Source: Escherichia coli (lineage in GTDB: Bacteria; Pseudomonadota; Gammaproteobacteria; Enterobacterales; Enterobacteriaceae). Taken from it: a stretch of 5,879 nucleotides of DNA. The notes below the pieces were generated by a model, which was not told the origin of the DNA, searched no databases, and saw nothing but the letters and a program-made list of their open reading frames with translations. This document shows positions 1 through 5,879 of the stretch, in pieces. Numbering within the stretch: the first letter of the stretch is position 1; every line of letters starts with the position of its first letter. The stretch lies in NCBI RefSeq assembly GCF_003334815.1, contig NZ_QOWO01000072.1. The stretch is one strand, 5' to 3'. Both the position numbers and the translations under genes were made by a program.

Positions 1-40
1 TTCGTACTAATCGCTTCAATCCAAAGAACTTCACTTTTCC

Positions 41-77
41 TTAGCGTGTGTTATCGCAGAAATGCCCACGGAACCCC
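41..77. repeat. Left copy of an imperfect 37-bp inverted repeat (partner at 5803-5839)
   Basis: Hand alignment: reverse complement of 41-77 matches plus 5803-5839 at 34/37 positions. The repeat contains the last 8 codons and TAA stop (51-53) of the 51..248 ORF. Confidence 0.7.
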
Positions 78-248
78 GGTTTGGCGTTTCCCTGCCAATA
101 TTTGATAGCCAACCCAGAGGATATAAACGCTAATACCTGCACTTAGAAGAGATAACATATCTTGGCCTAATTGACTTTGAAGTGGTTTGGTCATCTCTTC
201 GATTTTACTAACAACTTCGCTATTAAACTTTTCAAAGAAACCAGACAT
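51..248 (-). CDS. 65-aa membrane ORF resembling the N-terminal segment of VirB6/TrbL-family proteins (possibly a truncated gene)
   Basis: ATG at 248 preceded by AGGTGA, 4 nt after the stop of the upstream lipoprotein gene. MSGFF... then one hydrophobic helix (LSLLSAGISVYILWVGYQIL) followed by AGKR, the usual start of VirB6-type proteins, but it stops at TAA 51-53 where canonical proteins continue for about 250 aa. Confidence 0.4.
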   Translation of the reverse strand: MSGFFEKFNSEVVSKIEEMTKPLQSQLGQDMLSLLSAGISVYILWVGYQILAGKRQTGVPWAFLR

Positions 249-252
249 GTTA

Positions 253-516
253 TCACCTGTTCAATCCATGTTGCTTATCATATTCAGCTGACTCAGCCTT
301 AAGTATTTCAAGCATAGGCCCATAGGTTCTACCAATAATTCCGGCAACTTTTTTAACATTTTGACAATTAACAGAGTCTTCCCCTGACTTTTTACACTCC
401 TTATATTTCTCCGTTGCTTCTTTGGGATGATTTAGCCACCAATCTGATGATTTTGTATCTTCACCACATGCGGAAAGAATAAAAATAGATATCAAGAGTG
501 TACAAATTTTTTTCAT
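253..516 (-). CDS. Small secreted lipoprotein (87 aa); position immediately upstream of a VirB6/TrbL-like ORF suggests a TrbK/entry-exclusion-like role
   Basis: N-terminal signal peptide MKKICTLLISIFILSAC with lipobox L-S-A-C; GAGGA Shine-Dalgarno 7 nt upstream of the ATG at 516; stop TGA at 253-255. Confidence 0.6.
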   Translation of the reverse strand: MKKICTLLISIFILSACGEDTKSSDWWLNHPKEATEKYKECKKSGEDSVNCQNVKKVAGIIGRTYGPMLEILKAESAEYDKQHGLNR

Positions 517-536: not shown

Positions 537-578
537 ATTACAATTGCTGATGCAATCAGCAATTGTAATTTTTGTCAA
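537..578 (-). promoter_or_regulatory. Perfect palindrome (15-bp arms, 3-bp spacer) plus adjacent minus-strand TTGACA; candidate operator/promoter for the lipoprotein operon
   Basis: ATTACAATTGCTGAT-gca-ATCAGCAATTGTAAT at 537-569, 21 nt upstream of the ATG at 516. Minus-strand hexamer TTGACA at 578..573 immediately upstream. No clean -10 hexamer identified. Confidence 0.4.
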
Positions 579-617
579 CTAAAAAAAACACCTATTGCAT
601 TATGCTATTTTTTGCAA

Positions 618-902
618 TTAATCCGCTTCAAATCCAAAACGAATCTCTTTTATGTTCAAAAGCAATCTCAATAAGATCATCGGTCTTAACGATGAAGCTG
701 AAGCACAACTTAATTTAGCTCTTGCATTAAATAACTGCCCCTGAACTGTTCCCGGTGTTGTATTTCTAAAATAAGCTATTTCATCAATAGTAAATCCTAT
801 GCTGTATAAAATGGTCACGCTCTTTTCCGCATCGATTAATCCTTCATCGTCGTAAAAGATTTGATGAAGTTGAGAAATGCGTATAGCATCATGCTTAGTC
901 AT
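618..902 (-). CDS. Small helix-turn-helix DNA-binding protein (sigma-70 region-4 / KorA-like HTH)
   Basis: 94-aa ORF; AGAGG Shine-Dalgarno 6 nt upstream of the ATG at 902. Segment FTIDEIAYFRNTTPGTVQGQLFNARAKL fits the T-x-G-T-V HTH pattern. Lies 76 nt downstream of repA on the same strand. Confidence 0.5.
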   Translation of the reverse strand: MTKHDAIRISQLHQIFYDDEGLIDAEKSVTILYSIGFTIDEIAYFRNTTPGTVQGQLFNARAKLSCASASSLRPMILLRLLLNIKEIRFGFEAD

Positions 903-2589: not shown

Positions 2590-2934
2590 TCATCTAATGC
2601 TATGGTTGGTGACTTCTTTTTCCAGAGCCTTATTAACAAAAGCATTCAACGATAAATCTTCTTCCATCGCCATTTCTGCTACCCGACGATGCAGTTCTGG
2701 ATCAAGCCTGACGTTAAACACGCCTTTAAACGGGATATCAGGTTCCTTTCCATCCTCCACACAAGACTGTAAATACAGATCAACCGATGTTTTAAACTCC
2801 TGTTCCAGTTCAGCTAATGTAGAAGCCTCATAAGTTACCAGGTCCCGAATAAACGCCAGTTTTCCATACAGGACATTATTTTCAAAATCGGGTTCAACTG
2901 TACCTAAATATCCTTTATATTTTAAATGTTTCAT
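2590..2934 (-). CDS. hicB: HicB-family antitoxin (N-terminal HicB fold plus C-terminal ribbon-helix-helix DNA-binding domain)
   Basis: 114 aa; C-terminal FNVRLDPELHRRVAEMAMEEDLSLNAFVNKALEKEV is a typical RHH segment of HicB antitoxins. Start ATG 2934 overlaps the hicA stop (ATGA at 2931-2934); stop TGA 2590-2592. Confidence 0.8.
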   Translation of the reverse strand: MKHLKYKGYLGTVEPDFENNVLYGKLAFIRDLVTYEASTLAELEQEFKTSVDLYLQSCVEDGKEPDIPFKGVFNVRLDPELHRRVAEMAMEEDLSLNAFVNKALEKEVTNHSIR

Positions 2935-3179
2935 AATAATCCGGCCTCTTTCAGATTCTGTTTAATCGCTTTCAGCGTACCACCTTTAATATAACTTTCC
3001 GGATGTGGGCGATGCATTAATATGGTGTGGTTGATATCAGCATTGAAAAACCGCACTCTTGACCCCTGCATTTCTTTTTTGACATATCCCAAAGAGGAAA
3101 ACAAAACGACCAGTTCATCCCATTCAAACGTTTTTTTGCTGTTTAAAAACTTCGCCAGTAGTTTATCTGTTTTTCCCAT
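2931..3179 (-). CDS. hicA: HicA-family toxin (mRNA interferase)
   Basis: 82 aa; GSRVRFFNADINHTILMHRPHPESYIKGGTLKAIKQNLKEAGLL resembles the E. coli HicA core (GSNH...PRHP...LRKAILKQLGL, remembered). GGGGAG Shine-Dalgarno 3 nt upstream of the ATG at 3179; toxin-first order typical of hicAB. Confidence 0.75.
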   Translation of the reverse strand: MGKTDKLLAKFLNSKKTFEWDELVVLFSSLGYVKKEMQGSRVRFFNADINHTILMHRPHPESYIKGGTLKAIKQNLKEAGLL

Positions 3180-3193
3180 ACGCTCCCCTTGTT

Positions 3194-3229
3194 TGTAACT
3201 AATTATAGTTACAGTGTTGTTTTTGTCAA
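3194..3229 (-). promoter_or_regulatory. Consensus sigma70 promoter for hicAB with overlapping palindromic operator
   Basis: Minus strand: -35 TTGACA (3229..3224), 16-bp spacer, -10 TATAAT (3207..3202), about 23 nt upstream of the hicA ATG. Palindrome TGTAACT-aattat-AGTTACA (3194-3213) overlaps the -10. Confidence 0.55.
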
Positions 3230-3320
3230 ACGTGCCCTCAATGGAACATTTGAGCAGAAACTAAAGCTTGGAGACTCCCAAAATTAGAGAGGAATTACTT
3301 AAAGGCTGCAAAGAACCAAT

Positions 3321-3368
3321 GCAGGATAGACAATCCGATGTCAAATGGTACCATTCGATATCGGATTG
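3321..3368 (-). other. Candidate oriT: near-perfect 38-bp palindrome followed on the minus strand by a TATCCTG|C nick-like motif
   Basis: CAATCCGAT-gtca-AATGGTACCATT-cgat-ATCGGATTG at 3331-3368. On the minus strand the motif TATCCTGC (3328..3321) follows 2 nt after the repeat and fits the MOB_P-type nick consensus YATCCTG|Y. Lies in the divergent intergenic region next to a MobC-like gene. Confidence 0.35.
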
Positions 3369-3419
3369 TCCAAAAACAGGGTTTTTGCCTGTGCCTGCCG
3401 CAGGCTCTATGGAGTGAAG

Positions 3420-3923
3420 ATGAAACAGATAAAATTCAGACTTAGTGGTGATGAGTTAAAACTTGCAGAACATAACGCGATTTCAAGTGGATTTTCCAGT
3501 ATCAATACATTTGCCAGACATAATGTGCTTAACATTGAAACTAAGCCTGTTAATATCCCAGTTAATAATGAACCAGCAAAGCTGGTATCAGTGCGCCTTT
3601 ACCCTCATGAAATAGAACTTGTTAAACGTAATGCTGCCCTTCACGGCATGAGCATGAGCAGAGAAATTGCTATTCGTGTGCGTCAGTCTTTGTTAAAGAA
3701 TGAAGTCTGTCTTTACCCTGATGAAGTTAAGGAACTTAAAAAACTATCAACTGCTGTAGATCGTGTTGGTCGCAACATTCATTTTATCATAAAAGGTGAA
3801 AGATTCTGCACGGTTAACGATCCAGATTTCAGAAAAGACGTTATTGAAGTGATTGAACTGTGTAAGCAAATTGATTCAAAACTTGAAACGTTAACCAAGA
3901 GTGTTGTTAACAGATTTGGTTAA
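3420..3923 (+). CDS. MobC-like relaxosome accessory protein (tandem ribbon-helix-helix segments)
   Basis: 167 aa from ATG 3420, with GGAG 7 nt upstream; the track ORF start at 3345 lies inside the palindrome and is rejected. Two RHH-like segments (IKFRLSGDELKLAEHNAISSGF; KLVSVRLYPHEIELVKRNAALHGMSMSREIAIRV) and C-terminal LKKLSTAVDRVGRNIHFIIKG resembling the MobC L..L...R.G.N motif. Stop TAA 3921-3923. Confidence 0.45.
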   Translation: MKQIKFRLSGDELKLAEHNAISSGFSSINTFARHNVLNIETKPVNIPVNNEPAKLVSVRLYPHEIELVKRNAALHGMSMSREIAIRVRQSLLKNEVCLYPDEVKELKKLSTAVDRVGRNIHFIIKGERFCTVNDPDFRKDVIEVIELCKQIDSKLETLTKSVVNRFG

Positions 3924-3929
3924 AATCAA

Positions 3930-3948
3930 GGCCATCAAATAGATGGCC
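3930..3948 (-). terminator. Hairpin between convergent genes; likely intrinsic terminator for the minus-strand VirB5-like operon
   Basis: GGCCATC-aaata-GATGGCC (7-bp stem, 5-nt loop). On the minus strand it is followed by TTGATTTTA (U-rich); on the plus strand the downstream tract is not U-rich. Confidence 0.4.
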
Positions 3949-3955
3949 CTAGCTG

Positions 3956-4258
3956 TTATCTCATCGTAAATCGCATTACGATTAATAACAGAAGTAAAAT
4001 ACAAAACAGCTTCAACGTAAAAAGGAGTCTTTCTTTTATACCACCGCTGGGAACAAACCTCTTTTCAATTCTATCAGTGATAAATTGCAATGTGCCATAA
4101 TACATAAAAGCATTAACCAGCTTTAACGTAAGCTCCATACTTAAAACAATAACTATTATTGGTAGAGATATTAACAGTGGCGGCGGTGTAGAACCGGTAC
4201 TATTCAATCTAGACCAATGATTATCTACCCATTCTTTTAGCTTATTTAGCTTTATCAT
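3956..4258 (-). CDS. Small integral membrane protein (100 aa, two hydrophobic helices); entry-exclusion-like by position after the VirB5-like gene
   Basis: ATG at 4258 lies 1 nt after the VirB5-like stop (TGAtATG); the track ORF's longer N-terminus overlaps the upstream gene. Hydrophobic stretches PLLISLPIIVIVLSMELTL and LLFTLKLFCILLLLLIVMRF. No family recognised. Confidence 0.45.
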   Translation of the reverse strand: MIKLNKLKEWVDNHWSRLNSTGSTPPPLLISLPIIVIVLSMELTLKLVNAFMYYGTLQFITDRIEKRFVPSGGIKERLLFTLKLFCILLLLLIVMRFTMR

Positions 4259-4259
4259 A

Positions 4260-4973
4260 TCATTCGAAACTCGGTATTTTGGCATTTTTCTGACGTAAAC
4301 GATACTCTGCATACTTTTGTTCTTTCAACATTTCCGCATCAGCCCTGTTTTTACTATCCCATACATCATACTGCATTTTAATTGCCTGTATTTTTAACGA
4401 CTGAGCCTGTAATGCGTTAGCTAAATCCTGGGATTCCTTCATATCCTTTGAAGACTCAATTCGGCTACTTAAACTCTGAATCTGAGACATTGCACTTGAT
4501 AGCTGCTTATTTATCTCATTTCCCTGTTCAATGCTGGCGGCCGTTGAAACTATTCTGGCCTTACAAAGGTTATCAGAACTTTCAATGCCTGTATTACACA
4601 TATCAAACGCTCCATACTTACTGAACAGATTTTTAGCCTGGCTGCTTAATGCACCTTCGGGATTACTGGTAAAATCAGAAATATAACTGTTCCCCTGCTT
4701 ATAAATGTTTGCCAACTCTGATTGCAGGTTACTTAGTTCATTTGTGAATGCCGCAATATTCCTTATACCTGTTGCCGTGGCTAACTGGTCTTTATATGCC
4801 TGAATCTGACTTTGATAATGCCGCGCTGTTTCAGACCATTGTTTGAGTCGTTCTGTCCATCTTGTGGCTTCAATGGCCCATTCCGGACTGGCATCAATAG
4901 CAACCGGAATACCTGCGACAGAACCAAATGAAAATAAGCACAAAAGTACTGAAAAAATTAGTTTTTTGTTCAT
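4260..4973 (-). CDS. VirB5/TrbJ-family type IV secretion minor pilus protein
   Basis: 237 aa; signal peptide MNKKLIFSVLLCLFSFGSVAG, then GIPVAID and a Gln-rich coiled-coil stretch (QSQIQAYKDQLATATGIR) as in VirB5/TrbJ proteins. Strong GAGGAG Shine-Dalgarno; start overlaps the upstream gene's stop (ATGA at 4970-4973). Confidence 0.7.
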   Translation of the reverse strand: MNKKLIFSVLLCLFSFGSVAGIPVAIDASPEWAIEATRWTERLKQWSETARHYQSQIQAYKDQLATATGIRNIAAFTNELSNLQSELANIYKQGNSYISDFTSNPEGALSSQAKNLFSKYGAFDMCNTGIESSDNLCKARIVSTAASIEQGNEINKQLSSAMSQIQSLSSRIESSKDMKESQDLANALQAQSLKIQAIKMQYDVWDSKNRADAEMLKEQKYAEYRLRQKNAKIPSFE

Positions 4974-5710
4974 GCTGAACTCCTCGCACGTGCTTTTTCC
5001 AGGGATGCTCGTCTTCTTGCTTCCATTCCCAATGCGCCTGTTGAAGCCCGTTTCTGCTCCACTTTTTCACCTGCCCATTCGGCGGCTGTTTGCGTTCCCC
5101 GTTTCATTTGGTTTCTCGTTTTCTCTACGGCCATCCCAGCAGCCCCAATCCCTAAAAGAGCCATTCCCTGAAGAGTACCTTCGACACCTGCACCAGCAAG
5201 CTGCTGCGCGAAACTCGATGATTTCCAGACAAAGACAGCAATCAGAACTCCAATTACAAATGCCATTGCGCCCATTGTTAAAATATTTGTTGAGTTAGCA
5301 TCTCTCGATATCTGACTAAGCATATCAGTTTGAAACTCAGTACCAATTTTGACGAGAACTCCTGCAAAAATAACAGTAAATACACTAGAAAATAATATAC
5401 CAAGCCAGTTATTAAACATTACTCTGGTGAATCCAAACATATGACAACCGATAAATATCGGAGCTACAAGAATAGCTAACTGCATTGTTACATCGGCAAG
5501 CATGTAAATAACAGCCGCTACAGACATAATCAGGATGCTTCCTCCCCAAACCAACATTGAACCGATCCCACCCTCAACTGACACATATTTGGATTGATCC
5601 ATAGCATAAACTTTGTCTGCCAAAAGCTGAGTTGTACTCCACATGGTATCTAGCGTTGCCCATACAGGTTTACCAAGGAACCCATCCTTCATAGATTTAA
5701 TAGCATCCAT
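4970..5710 (-). CDS. VirB6/TrbL-family polytopic inner-membrane protein, lacking the canonical N-terminal segment (possibly N-terminally truncated)
   Basis: 246 aa with 4-5 hydrophobic helices and a charged C-terminal tail. APIFIGCHMFGFTRVMFNNWLGILF matches the conserved VirB6 P-x-F-I...TR..F..W block (remembered from Brucella/Agrobacterium VirB6). The frame is open upstream to TGA 5861-5863 with no ATG/GTG/TTG before ATG 5710, and the ribosome-binding site is weak. Confidence 0.7.
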   Translation of the reverse strand: MDAIKSMKDGFLGKPVWATLDTMWSTTQLLADKVYAMDQSKYVSVEGGIGSMLVWGGSILIMSVAAVIYMLADVTMQLAILVAPIFIGCHMFGFTRVMFNNWLGILFSSVFTVIFAGVLVKIGTEFQTDMLSQISRDANSTNILTMGAMAFVIGVLIAVFVWKSSSFAQQLAGAGVEGTLQGMALLGIGAAGMAVEKTRNQMKRGTQTAAEWAGEKVEQKRASTGALGMEARRRASLEKARARSSA

Positions 5711-5802
5711 TGCTGCCGTCAGATAGCCATCAGCATTGCTTACGAATGTTAAAATAATGGCAAATTTTGATAGGTCCCAAACGAGATCTTGTAATGGGGT
5801 TT

Positions 5803-5839
5803 GGGGCTCCGTGGGAATTTCTGCGATAACACCCGCTAA
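5803..5839. repeat. Right copy of the imperfect 37-bp inverted repeat (partner at 41-77); an inverted, degenerate copy of the 3' end of the 51..248 ORF
   Basis: Plus 5758-5829 translates to WQILIGPKRDLVMGFGAPWEFLR-stop, versus YQILAGKRQTGVPWAFLR-stop at the C-terminus of the 51..248 ORF (encoded on the opposite strand). Nucleotide identity is 34/37 in the core. Confidence 0.7.
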
Positions 5840-5849
5840 GCGATTTCTC

Positions 5850-5879
5850 CCTGACGGAAATCACTTGTTTTCCGTCAGG
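5850..5879. repeat. Perfect hairpin/inverted repeat at the right window edge (11-bp stem, 8-nt loop)
   Basis: CCTGACGGAAA-tcacttgt-TTTCCGTCAGG; the stem contains the in-frame TGA (5861-5863) that closes the upstream extension of the VirB6-like reading frame. Downstream context is beyond the window. Confidence 0.5.

Follow-up and report, generated by a model that had tools for sequence, protein, structure and literature searches.

A virB6 gene split, very probably by a Tn3-family transposon, in an IncX4-derived module of a small Escherichia coli plasmid

Tn5403 is a cryptic class II transposon of ~3.7 kb that carries tnpR and tnpA and is similar to the element described here. Tn3-family transposons of this kind have 38-bp GGGG…TAAG terminal inverted repeats (IRs), a 5-bp target-site duplication, a DDE transposase (TnpA; NCBIfam NF033527), and a TnpR of the serine-recombinase type, with a res-like region separating tnpR from the nearby IR. 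Complete copies of the element studied here are alike in these respects, but the window, by which we mean the whole 5,879-nt stretch of E. coli DNA that was analyzed, contains just its two 77-nt ends. We consider it very likely (probability about 0.92) that the window is a contig assembled from short reads and belongs to a ~5.7-kb plasmid whose virB6 gene was struck by such a replicative transposon.

The split gene belongs to a module with relatives among described transfer systems. In the IncX4/IncX7 pilX operon with PixR (PMC8725589), the regulator lies directly before eex, and the module shares this arrangement with IncX4. The IncX4 order is eex-pilX1-2-3/4-5-6-…-11, whereas of these genes the module retains eex, 6, and 5 alone, and 6 precedes 5. 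Another relative is found on the Yersinia pestis plasmid pYC (NC_002144), referred to as cryptic where PMC3316555 cites Dong et al. 2000. Mobilizable islands also carry transfer genes that reshape their helpers: TraG/TraH/TraN in SGI1, and TrbJ-TrbK-TrbL in GISul2 or the "IncP island" (PMC5704250). SGI1 disables the entry exclusion of its helper by replacing the helper's TraG (PMC5704250).

The two parts of virB6 and the transposon ends

Two minus-strand ORFs of the window, one of 246 aa (5710..4970) and one of 65 aa (248..51), are parts of one 332-aa TrbL/VirB6 gene. Both had been located from the letters of the window, together with ORFs for a 237-aa protein (4973..4260, minus strand) and an 87-aa lipoprotein (516..253, minus strand), and all four lie where they had been placed. 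The suggestion that this 65-aa ORF supplies the N terminus missing from VirB6 was borne out: the 5′ part of virB6 (78..248, minus strand) comprises codons 1–57, including the first transmembrane segment, TM1 (residues 34–52), after which the ORF runs on to position 51 through eight codons (GVPWAFLR) and a TAA read from the transposon IR. The 3′ part (4970..5802, minus strand) comprises codons 56/57–332, which encode the periplasmic loop, four more hydrophobic segments, and the tail at the C terminus. The start of the 246-aa ORF is internal Met87 (ATG at 5710), a mere ORF call; on the minus strand, the frame stays open upstream of it until a TGA at 5861–5863, and this stop and the TAA at 51–53 are both present and in frame, as the sequence-only reading had described.

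Removal of the element and one copy of the target-site duplication restores a 999-nt ORF of 332 aa. The rebuilt protein is identical in 332/332 positions to WP_033550755.1 of NZ_CP122591.1, an empty-site plasmid in which the 999-nt virB6 is whole. Its match to the Pfam TrbL family (PF04610) covers positions 2–214 of the 215 in the model (E = 1.4e-40), and it has five hydrophobic segments in a polytopic layout, as in members of the TrbL/VirB6 family; NCBIfam contained no model matching it. The proposed profile searches thus gave PF04610 for the VirB6-like protein and PF07996 for its VirB5-like neighbor. The insertion point lies after codon 57, just beyond TM1.

The left, tnpR-proximal end of the transposon (Tn 1–77) occupies positions 5803..5879 on the plus strand, with 1 mismatch in 77 relative to complete 3,788-bp copies, and the right, tnpA end (Tn 3712–3788) occupies 1..77 on the same strand and is identical to them at 77/77 positions. 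The left 38-bp terminal IR (GGGGCTCCGTGGGAATTTCTGCGATAACACCCGCTAAG, 5803–5840) pairs with the right one (40–77) at 35/38 positions; they read GGGG…CGCTAAG, in keeping with the GGGG start and TAAG end of Tn3-family IRs. Positions 3–44 hold the tail of tnpA, namely its last 13 codons (RTNRFNPKNFTFP) and TAG. Directly outside the two IRs lie two copies of a 5-bp target-site duplication, GGTTT (5798..5802 and 78..82). The empty site predicted from them, GAGATCTTGTAATGGGGTTTGGCGTTTCCC, with one GGTTT, matches exactly in two relatives (L001 and L002), so that the two signs of insertion expected for the Tn3 family, a 5-bp duplication and relatives with an unoccupied site, were both found. With the transposon ends and one duplication copy taken away, the window backbone is 5,720 bp and the same as LR792480.1, another plasmid with the empty site and a whole virB6, save for two 1-nt indels in A-runs. 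The plasmid has an iteron/Rep_3 replicon, HicAB, ddp1, an IncX4-like oriT-type segment, and the module (regulator-EexN-VirB6-VirB5-small membrane protein). The 35/38 IR pairing, the perfect 5-bp repeat, and the 100% identity of the restored ORF place the split well beyond chance.

The hairpin that had been noted at the window edge is genuine: a palindrome with 11-bp arms, CCTGACGGAAA-TCACTTGT-TTTCCGTCAGG, fills positions 5850..5879 (Tn 48–77). Its place is in the res region, past the IR and ahead of tnpR, and related motifs (TGTCGGAA and TGTCGTACA) occur at Tn 135 and 177, 5′ of tnpR (start at Tn 185). The palindrome is a candidate resolvase-binding subsite.

Continuation of the insertion beyond the window

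Complete copies of the element elsewhere are 3,788 bp long, with the layout IR-res-tnpR-tnpA-IR, and occur commonly on plasmids of E. coli and Salmonella. The TnpA they encode reaches 917 bits with NF033527, for which the cut-off is 500, and the annotation pipeline PGAP labels the element "Tn3 family transposase" only, with no specific name; a literature search with the IR string returned nothing, and a name for the element was not found. Three reference copies that we inspected are without matching target duplications, so the insertion in the window is the only sign of recent activity. One candidate whose transposon end matches perfectly (H91) was rejected as a truncated remnant beside an IS3 element.

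The 65-aa fusion ORF is present in at least five further contigs from ~10 samples. One contig, L012, spans the whole window and continues past position 5879 with Tn 78–133 (56/56 identical) and before position 1 with Tn 3668–3711 (44 nt, 44/44 identical). Another, L015, has the same junction and extends 622 nt deeper into tnpA (620/622 identical), so that it contains 699 nt of the right end in all (Tn 3090–3788); its 221-residue product matches PF01526, as expected of a Tn3-type DDE transposase. The window and these two contigs are 100% identical over all overlaps, which argues for one lineage. The linkage between transposon and plasmid was thus seen to Tn 133 on the tnpR side and from Tn 3090 on the tnpA side. 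We infer that the insert in the window plasmid is the full 3,788-bp element, which would bring the plasmid to ~9.5 kb.

Contigs stop inside the transposon at characteristic distances. Both ends of the window lie exactly 77 nt inside it, as expected of a contig break at k = 77; in the Logan assemblies, for which we take k to be 31, the reach is 30 nt, and the overhangs of L012 (133 and 121 nt) sum to 254 nt, or 2 × 127, though they are not 127 nt each. The transposon is probably multi-copy in the host genome, and de Bruijn assemblers would break there for that reason. Different assemblers, working on different samples (NCBI and Logan), arrived independently at the same junctions. In exact searches, the virB6::Tn junction was not found in viral, metagenome, or species-representative genome contigs, and it was absent from complete E. 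coli genomes; a search with the 285-aa product that spans the tnpR-side junction returned only L012.

These continuations overturn the idea, entertained in the sequence-only reading, that the window ends are contiguous in a circle of exactly 5,879 bp: L012 and L015 run past the ends into the transposon. Its proposal of a palindromic insertion in virB6 holds insofar as the inserted element has inverted-repeat ends and fails as to size, since the ~70 nt envisaged give way to an element that bears tnpA and is 3,788 bp when complete. With such an insert, the agreement in phase of the two reading frames is meaningless. Nor are the fragments of virB6 separated by 4.7 kb on the plasmid, where they lie opposite one another on the two sides of the transposon.

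A closed 5,879-bp circle or tandem unit would carry in virB6 a ~154-bp palindromic element, with ~70 nt between the two stops. The joined window ends do resemble a miniature element, having 38-bp IRs and a 5-bp duplication that make them formally similar to a MITE or TIME. For this to be real, however, the deletion junction would have to coincide with the arbitrary break of the window, symmetrically at 77/77, and in BLAST the joined ends split exactly at 77/78; the contiguous sequence was absent from every collection searched (72,556 plasmids, 5,426 complete E. coli genomes, and viral contigs). This candidate was dropped after the BLAST split and then the continuations in L012 and L015, which differ from it beyond both window ends and refute it for those two contigs; for the window itself, we give it next to no credence. 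A true miniature derivative of the transposon does exist: in six plasmids of the pECOED type, Tn 1–186 is joined to 3576–3785 in a 394-bp form. The insert in the window's own sample might be an internally deleted, non-autonomous, TIME-like derivative of this sort, all the more as the tnpR side was traced only to Tn 133, which also lies within the 394-bp form. That form, however, keeps 210 nt of the right end, whereas L015 has 699 nt with tnpA at the identical junction and so is not miniature, and the window is indistinguishable from L012 and L015 wherever they overlap. A deleted derivative is thus improbable.

A mis-join of transposon ends to an uninterrupted plasmid contig is of a kind that does occur at contig ends inside repeats, but the transposon ends here have a perfect 5-bp target duplication on their flanks and reappear from different assemblers and samples, and we regard such a chimera as exceedingly unlikely. 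No more credible is a split VirB6, made as an N-terminal peptide and a 246-aa protein, as the functional conserved state. The 246-aa ORF is called in L017 too, but there the split is an exact 127-bp duplication, probably a leftover k = 127 overlap. The sequence-only reading had named a conserved split in homologous loci as grounds for abandoning its view; none was found, virB6 being uninterrupted in 22/22 related PLSDB plasmids (332 aa where the gene lies within one record; 294 aa in pYC), with a dN/dS of 0.08 over the whole gene. We read the split of virB6 as an ordinary transposon knock-out combined with an assembly break. When a contig breaks off k bases into both ends of a transposon, it can mimic a circle with a very small palindromic insertion, and a gene divided between the contig ends can mimic a rearranged operon; here, the ambiguity was resolved by recognizing IRs of 38 bp, a 5-bp duplication, and relatives in which the site is empty.

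For an insertion of this type, TnpA would join the plasmid to the donor replicon in a cointegrate, which TnpR would then resolve at res. VirB6 is predicted to be lost, leaving a 57-residue stub followed by the eight IR-encoded residues. Because 3.8 kb of oppositely oriented transposon DNA would part the 3′ section of virB6, virB5, and the small membrane protein gene from the eex promoter, their expression should fall, and a polar effect is predicted on the translationally coupled virB5 and on the small membrane protein gene.

A conserved module of IncX4 origin

The first gene of the operon (253..516, minus strand) encodes an 87-aa lipoprotein with a lipobox, LSAC, at residues 14–17. Its score of 69 bits against the NCBIfam EexN model NF033894 (cut-off 33) points to the EexN family of entry-exclusion lipoproteins. 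The protein had been called TrbK-like; its entry-exclusion character stands, but NCBIfam returned EexN (IncN-type) and no TrbK model, and judged by its sequence it is a functional analogue of TrbK only. Upstream of eex, a TTGACA resembling a −35 element precedes a perfect palindrome of 15+3+15 (537–569), and this stretch (537..580, minus strand) probably serves the module as promoter and operator; another perfect palindrome occupies the same position in pYC. Further upstream lies the gene for a 94-aa HTH regulator (618..902, minus strand), which is 40% identical (E = 4e-18) to the HTH protein at the PixR position (taxC-HTH-eex) of an IncX4-type plasmid and matches Pfam HTH_40 and Sigma70_r4_2 weakly.

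Downstream of virB6, the virB5-type gene (4260..4973, minus strand) overlaps the virB6 stop codon by an ATGA (GCATGAAC). Its 237-aa product has a signal peptide, matches PF07996 (E = 1.9e-27), and is 85% identical to PilX5 of an IncX4-type plasmid; against the P-type equivalog model TIGR02791 it scores 44.3 bits, below the cut-off of 132. The last gene of the module (3956..4258, minus strand) encodes a 100-aa small membrane protein that is 67% identical to an ORF of pYC and was without a counterpart in Pfam, NCBIfam, or IncX4. Just downstream of this gene, a hairpin with a T-rich tail, GGCCATC-AAATA-GATGGCC (3930–3948), was read off the sequence and had not been flagged by the hairpin scan. 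A search of the whole window against Rfam gave no match.

The order regulator-EexN-VirB6-VirB5-small membrane protein is unusual but genuine. The view that the VirB6-VirB5 junction is established was upheld, as the order and the 4-nt overlap also occur in a cointegrate and in 4,237-bp RepL plasmids of E. coli, Shigella, and Klebsiella; in pYC, VirB6 likewise precedes VirB5, but with a 193-nt gap. An origin of the order by insertion or local rearrangement was rejected, since three other backbones share it, and VirB6 before VirB5 is the normal, selected state of the module, unrelated to the insertion. Values of dN/dS for the module among the RepL plasmids, pYC, and the cointegrate range from 0.03 to 0.2, indicating purifying selection. 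Among complete E. coli genomes, ~27 of 5,426 have the module; in the plasmid collection, 22 of 72,556 do, and pYC has it too. Both pYC and the 4,237-bp plasmids have the LuxR/HTH regulator, EexN, VirB6, VirB5, and the small ORF; identities are 85% (VirB6) and 77% (Eex) for pYC and 98–99% for both proteins in the 4,237-bp family. They differ from the window plasmid in having other replicons and an uninterrupted virB6, which in pYC has a shorter C terminus.

The module derives from IncX4 transfer genes. Its proteins are 84–85% (VirB5), 51–56% (VirB6), 53% (Eex), and 40% (regulator) identical to those of IncX4-type plasmids, which also share ddp1, hicAB, and the oriT-type segment with the window plasmid; the small membrane protein is an extra of the module. 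We consider this selected, IncX4-derived Eex-VirB6-VirB5 module, present without other secretion genes, to be of more biological interest than the insertion that split it.

A possible role in reshaping an IncX4 helper

By analogy with the islands, the cassette might be a plasmid-borne counterpart of the TraGHN set of SGI1 and the TrbJKL set of GISul2. Taken as a whole, this reading is a tentative one, with the odds somewhat against it. The likeness lies in a non-conjugative carrier that encodes a VirB6 homolog, alone or together with VirB5 and an exclusion protein, related to those of the helper. Here, in contrast to the islands, a small plasmid acts as carrier, IncX4 is the presumed helper, and the gene order is Eex-B6-B5. 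On this analogy, VirB6 of the cassette, possibly with VirB5, may swap into the secretion machine of the IncX4 helper. The cassette's own Eex may set up a separate exclusion group and so let the small plasmid enter helper-bearing cells, and the PixR-like regulator may switch on the transfer genes of the helper. If the reshaping reading is true, the lineage disrupted by the transposon is a natural knock-out of that function.

The carriers of the cassette (pYC, the 4.2-kb RepL family, and the 5.7-kb family) are small plasmids that lack a relaxase but have an oriT-type segment. The observations that bear on the reshaping reading are circumstantial: VirB6 and Eex share 50–57% identity with their IncX4 counterparts while VirB5 shares 71–84%, and ddp1 and the oriT-type segment, which is IncX4-like, are present. 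A pilX5 of the IncX4 type occurs in about 4% of complete E. coli genomes. Among the matches listed (60 of 253 records), IncX4 plasmids are co-resident in at least three carrier strains.

A transposon insertion in virB6

A check against the ORF list and the sequence confirmed the sequence-only reading in all its coordinates, in the ATGA overlap and in both stop codons. The window's last 77 and first 77 bases bear a 38-bp imperfect inverted repeat (IR; GGGGCTCCGTGGGAATTTCTGCGATAACACCCGCTAAG at 5803-5840, partner at 40-77, 35/38 matching), with GGTTT directly outside each copy (5798-5802 and 78-82). Repeats of this kind, 38 bp long and of the form GGGG…TAAG, mark Tn3-family transposons when a 5-bp duplication flanks them (see also PMC4133298 and PMC13367494, on TIMEs). 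Removal of 5803..5879, 1..77 and one GGTTT fused a 65-aa ORF (248..51, minus) with a 246-aa ORF (5710..4970, minus) into one gene of 999 nt. The encoded 332-aa protein matched the Pfam TrbL/VirB6 profile end to end (model 2-214/215, E 1.4e-40) and was identical at 332/332 residues to the annotated protein of NZ_CP122591.1, bearing out the proposal that the short ORF holds the missing VirB6 N terminus. The break follows codon 57, just beyond hydrophobic segment 1 of five (residues 34-52, the others lying within 139-247), so the 65-aa ORF consists of the first 57 residues of VirB6 followed by GVPWAFLR and a stop codon, this tail being read from the IR. The 246-aa "gene" is a mere ORF call starting at internal Met87. 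Window 3-44 holds the last 13 tnpA codons and TAG.

Taking the element out leaves a backbone of 5,720 bp, from which LR792480.1 (Salmonella Typhimurium, 5,718 bp) departs by two single-A indels only and to which NZ_CP122591.1 (E. coli, circular, 5,720 bp) is 98.7% identical; the predicted uninterrupted site was found in both. An insert-free plasmid, the same but for two indels, therefore exists.

The inverted repeats, the GGTTT duplication, the empty site and, from other contigs described below, the link to tnpA are observed; the rest of the course is inferred. TnpA would have driven replicative transposition from another replicon and TnpR would then have resolved the product, giving a plasmid of about 9.5 kb. 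VirB6 would be lost, and virB5, which is translationally coupled to virB6, would suffer a polar effect together with the small membrane protein gene, because the oppositely oriented transposon now parts them from the eex promoter.

In one public assembly of the empty-site plasmid (GCA_900457155.1, UGZF01000006.1), the 127 bp of window 5619-5745 are repeated exactly and in tandem within virB6 (positions 2909-3162), which yields a false 121-aa + 246-aa split; the probable source is a terminal overlap of k=127 kept in a rotated circular contig.

The contig break

BLAST of the joined 154 nt broke exactly at 77/78, the window break, and the halves proved to be the tnpR-proximal end and the tnpA 3' end of one 3,788-bp element, IR-res-tnpR-tnpA-IR. 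Complete copies (Tn) occur, for example, at 6001-9788 of L005 and 2290-6077 of L003, and TnpA, with 917 bits, lay well above the 500-bit cut-off of the Tn3-family model. Looking up the exact sequence of the 65-aa fusion ORF showed this insertion in at least five further contigs, which represent about ten samples. This recurrence suggests a stably inherited lineage, and the module carrying virB6 would therefore be dispensable for plasmid maintenance.

Two of these contigs reach beyond the window. L012 (5,979 bp) contains the entire window at 100% and runs past both ends, into Tn 78-133 after position 5879 (56/56 identical) and Tn 3668-3711 before position 1 (44/44). L015 continues from window 422..1 into another 622 nt of tnpA (620/622), whose product bears PF01526. 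These continuations speak against a closed circle of window length, and the palindromic insertion of about 70 nt, like the phase agreement of the two frames, is an artefact of joining the window ends. The contiguous 154-bp form was not found in 72,556 plasmids, 5,426 complete E. coli genomes or viral contigs; the only short form found, 394 bp long, was an internally deleted derivative carried by pECOED-type plasmids. Assembler k-mer sizes are typically 31, 77 and 127. Logan contigs stop 30 nt and the window 77 nt into the element, and the two L012 overhangs sum to 254 nt; stops that follow k-mer sizes are expected when a unique contig meets a repeat, so the window is a contig that stops at a repeated transposon on either side, rather than a closed circle. 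The split observed by the sequence-only reading thus stands and its interpretation was partly right, the cause being a routine Tn3-family insertion viewed across a contig break, of low novelty.

The edge hairpin (5850-5879) corresponds to Tn 48-77, within the res region that precedes tnpR, and is plausibly a resolvase subsite. The 394-bp derivative (3001-3394 of pECOED, NC_011754, and five other plasmids) joins Tn 1-186 to 3576-3785. Formally this makes it a miniature, TIME-like element, though one that lacks a matching target duplication.

The plasmid and its module

By ORF list and profile searches, the window is a small plasmid. A Rep_3-type initiator gene (979-1728, minus) adjoins four perfect 21-bp iterons (CCCGAAAAAAGTTACTTTTAA, 1861-1945) followed by degenerate AT-rich 11-mers (1982-2029), a typical iteron origin. 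hicAB (2590-3179, minus) is 94% identical to the IncX4 copy, inverted relative to ddp1, with a perfect consensus sigma-70 promoter directly upstream of hicA (3229..3202, minus; TTGACA-16-TATAAT, 12/12). ddp1 lies at 3420-3923 (plus; NF041451, 232 bits, cut-off 150). A GC-rich non-coding block (2158-2580) is 84-88% identical to tiny Col-type plasmids of ~1.5 kb and to 4,237-bp RepL plasmids; an Rfam search matched nothing in it, hence no RNAI lies there, and the block could be what is left of a second region for replication or priming. Upstream of ddp1, segment 3314-3419 shares 88% identity with the region between hicB and ddp1 of IncX4, holds an inverted repeat (CAATCCGAT…ATCGGATTG, about 3330-3368) and occurs twice, in opposite orientations, in the RepL plasmids (L008 1-85 and 2870-2959); it is a candidate IncX4-type oriT. 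MOB-suite classed the window plasmid type and the RepL plasmids all as non-mobilizable.

The module, all on the minus strand, comprises a 94-aa HTH regulator (902..618), an EexN lipoprotein (516..253), VirB6, a 237-aa VirB5-type protein (4973..4260) and a 100-aa membrane protein (4258..3956). The last has two hydrophobic stretches and is conserved in Y. pestis pYC (67% identity) and RepL plasmids; no Pfam, NCBIfam or IncX4 counterpart was found, and its gene is module-specific. Between regulator and eex (537-580, minus), a -35-like TTGACA directly precedes a perfect 15+3+15 palindrome, ATTACAATTGCTGAT-GCA-ATCAGCAATTGTAAT. pYC has another perfect palindrome, AACAGCCCTGAATA|TATTCAGGGCTGTT, in the same position (about 4380-4430), and its regulator is only 43% identical. 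The palindrome looks like an operator co-evolving with the regulator.

Module order and relation to IncX4 plasmids

The sequence-only reading took the VirB6-VirB5 junction as established, and rightly so: regulator-EexN-VirB6-VirB5(-small ORF) recurs in RepL plasmids of E. coli, Shigella and Klebsiella, in pYC, in a cointegrate with an IncX4-like plasmid and in the empty-site relatives. These four settings rule out the order as a by-product of the insertion. Module genes have no internal stops and a dN/dS of 0.03-0.2. IncX4-type plasmids, unlike the module, are ordered taxC-HTH-eex-pilX1-…-pilX5-pilX6, and PixR activates their transfer operon from upstream of its first gene, cds9 (PMC8725589), which we take to be eex.

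Module VirB5 is 84-85% identical to IncX4 PilX5, compared with only 51-56% for VirB6 and 53% for Eex. At the DNA level (window 4317-4917 for virB5 and 4969-5791 for virB6; H191, NZ_CP046418.1), virB5 shares 91% identity with typical IncX4 pilX5 and 96.5% with the IncX4 plasmid that accompanies a 4,237-bp plasmid in strain LZYWN_4; virB6 matches IncX4 in 71-79% patches only. This mosaic relative to IncX4 suggests recombination between small plasmids and IncX4 helpers. No conjugative plasmid with a closer VirB6 was found in PLSDB.

VirB6 homologues are donor-side partners of exclusion proteins (PMC12282955). SGI1 carries VirB6/VirB5/Eex-type genes that reshape the helper machine and bypass helper exclusion, a role also proposed for GISul2 and an IncP island (PMC5704250). 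By analogy, the small-plasmid module may act likewise against IncX4 helpers; a literature search found no experiment on it. Already present in public sequences, the module is of modest interest as an analogue of known helper-reshaping gene sets.

The natural cointegrate NZ_AP042573.1 (38,788 bp) joins an IncX4-like conjugative plasmid to the 5.7-kb small plasmid. Its joints fall where hicAB and ddp1/taxA are duplicated, and it retains both Eex, VirB6 and VirB5 sets.
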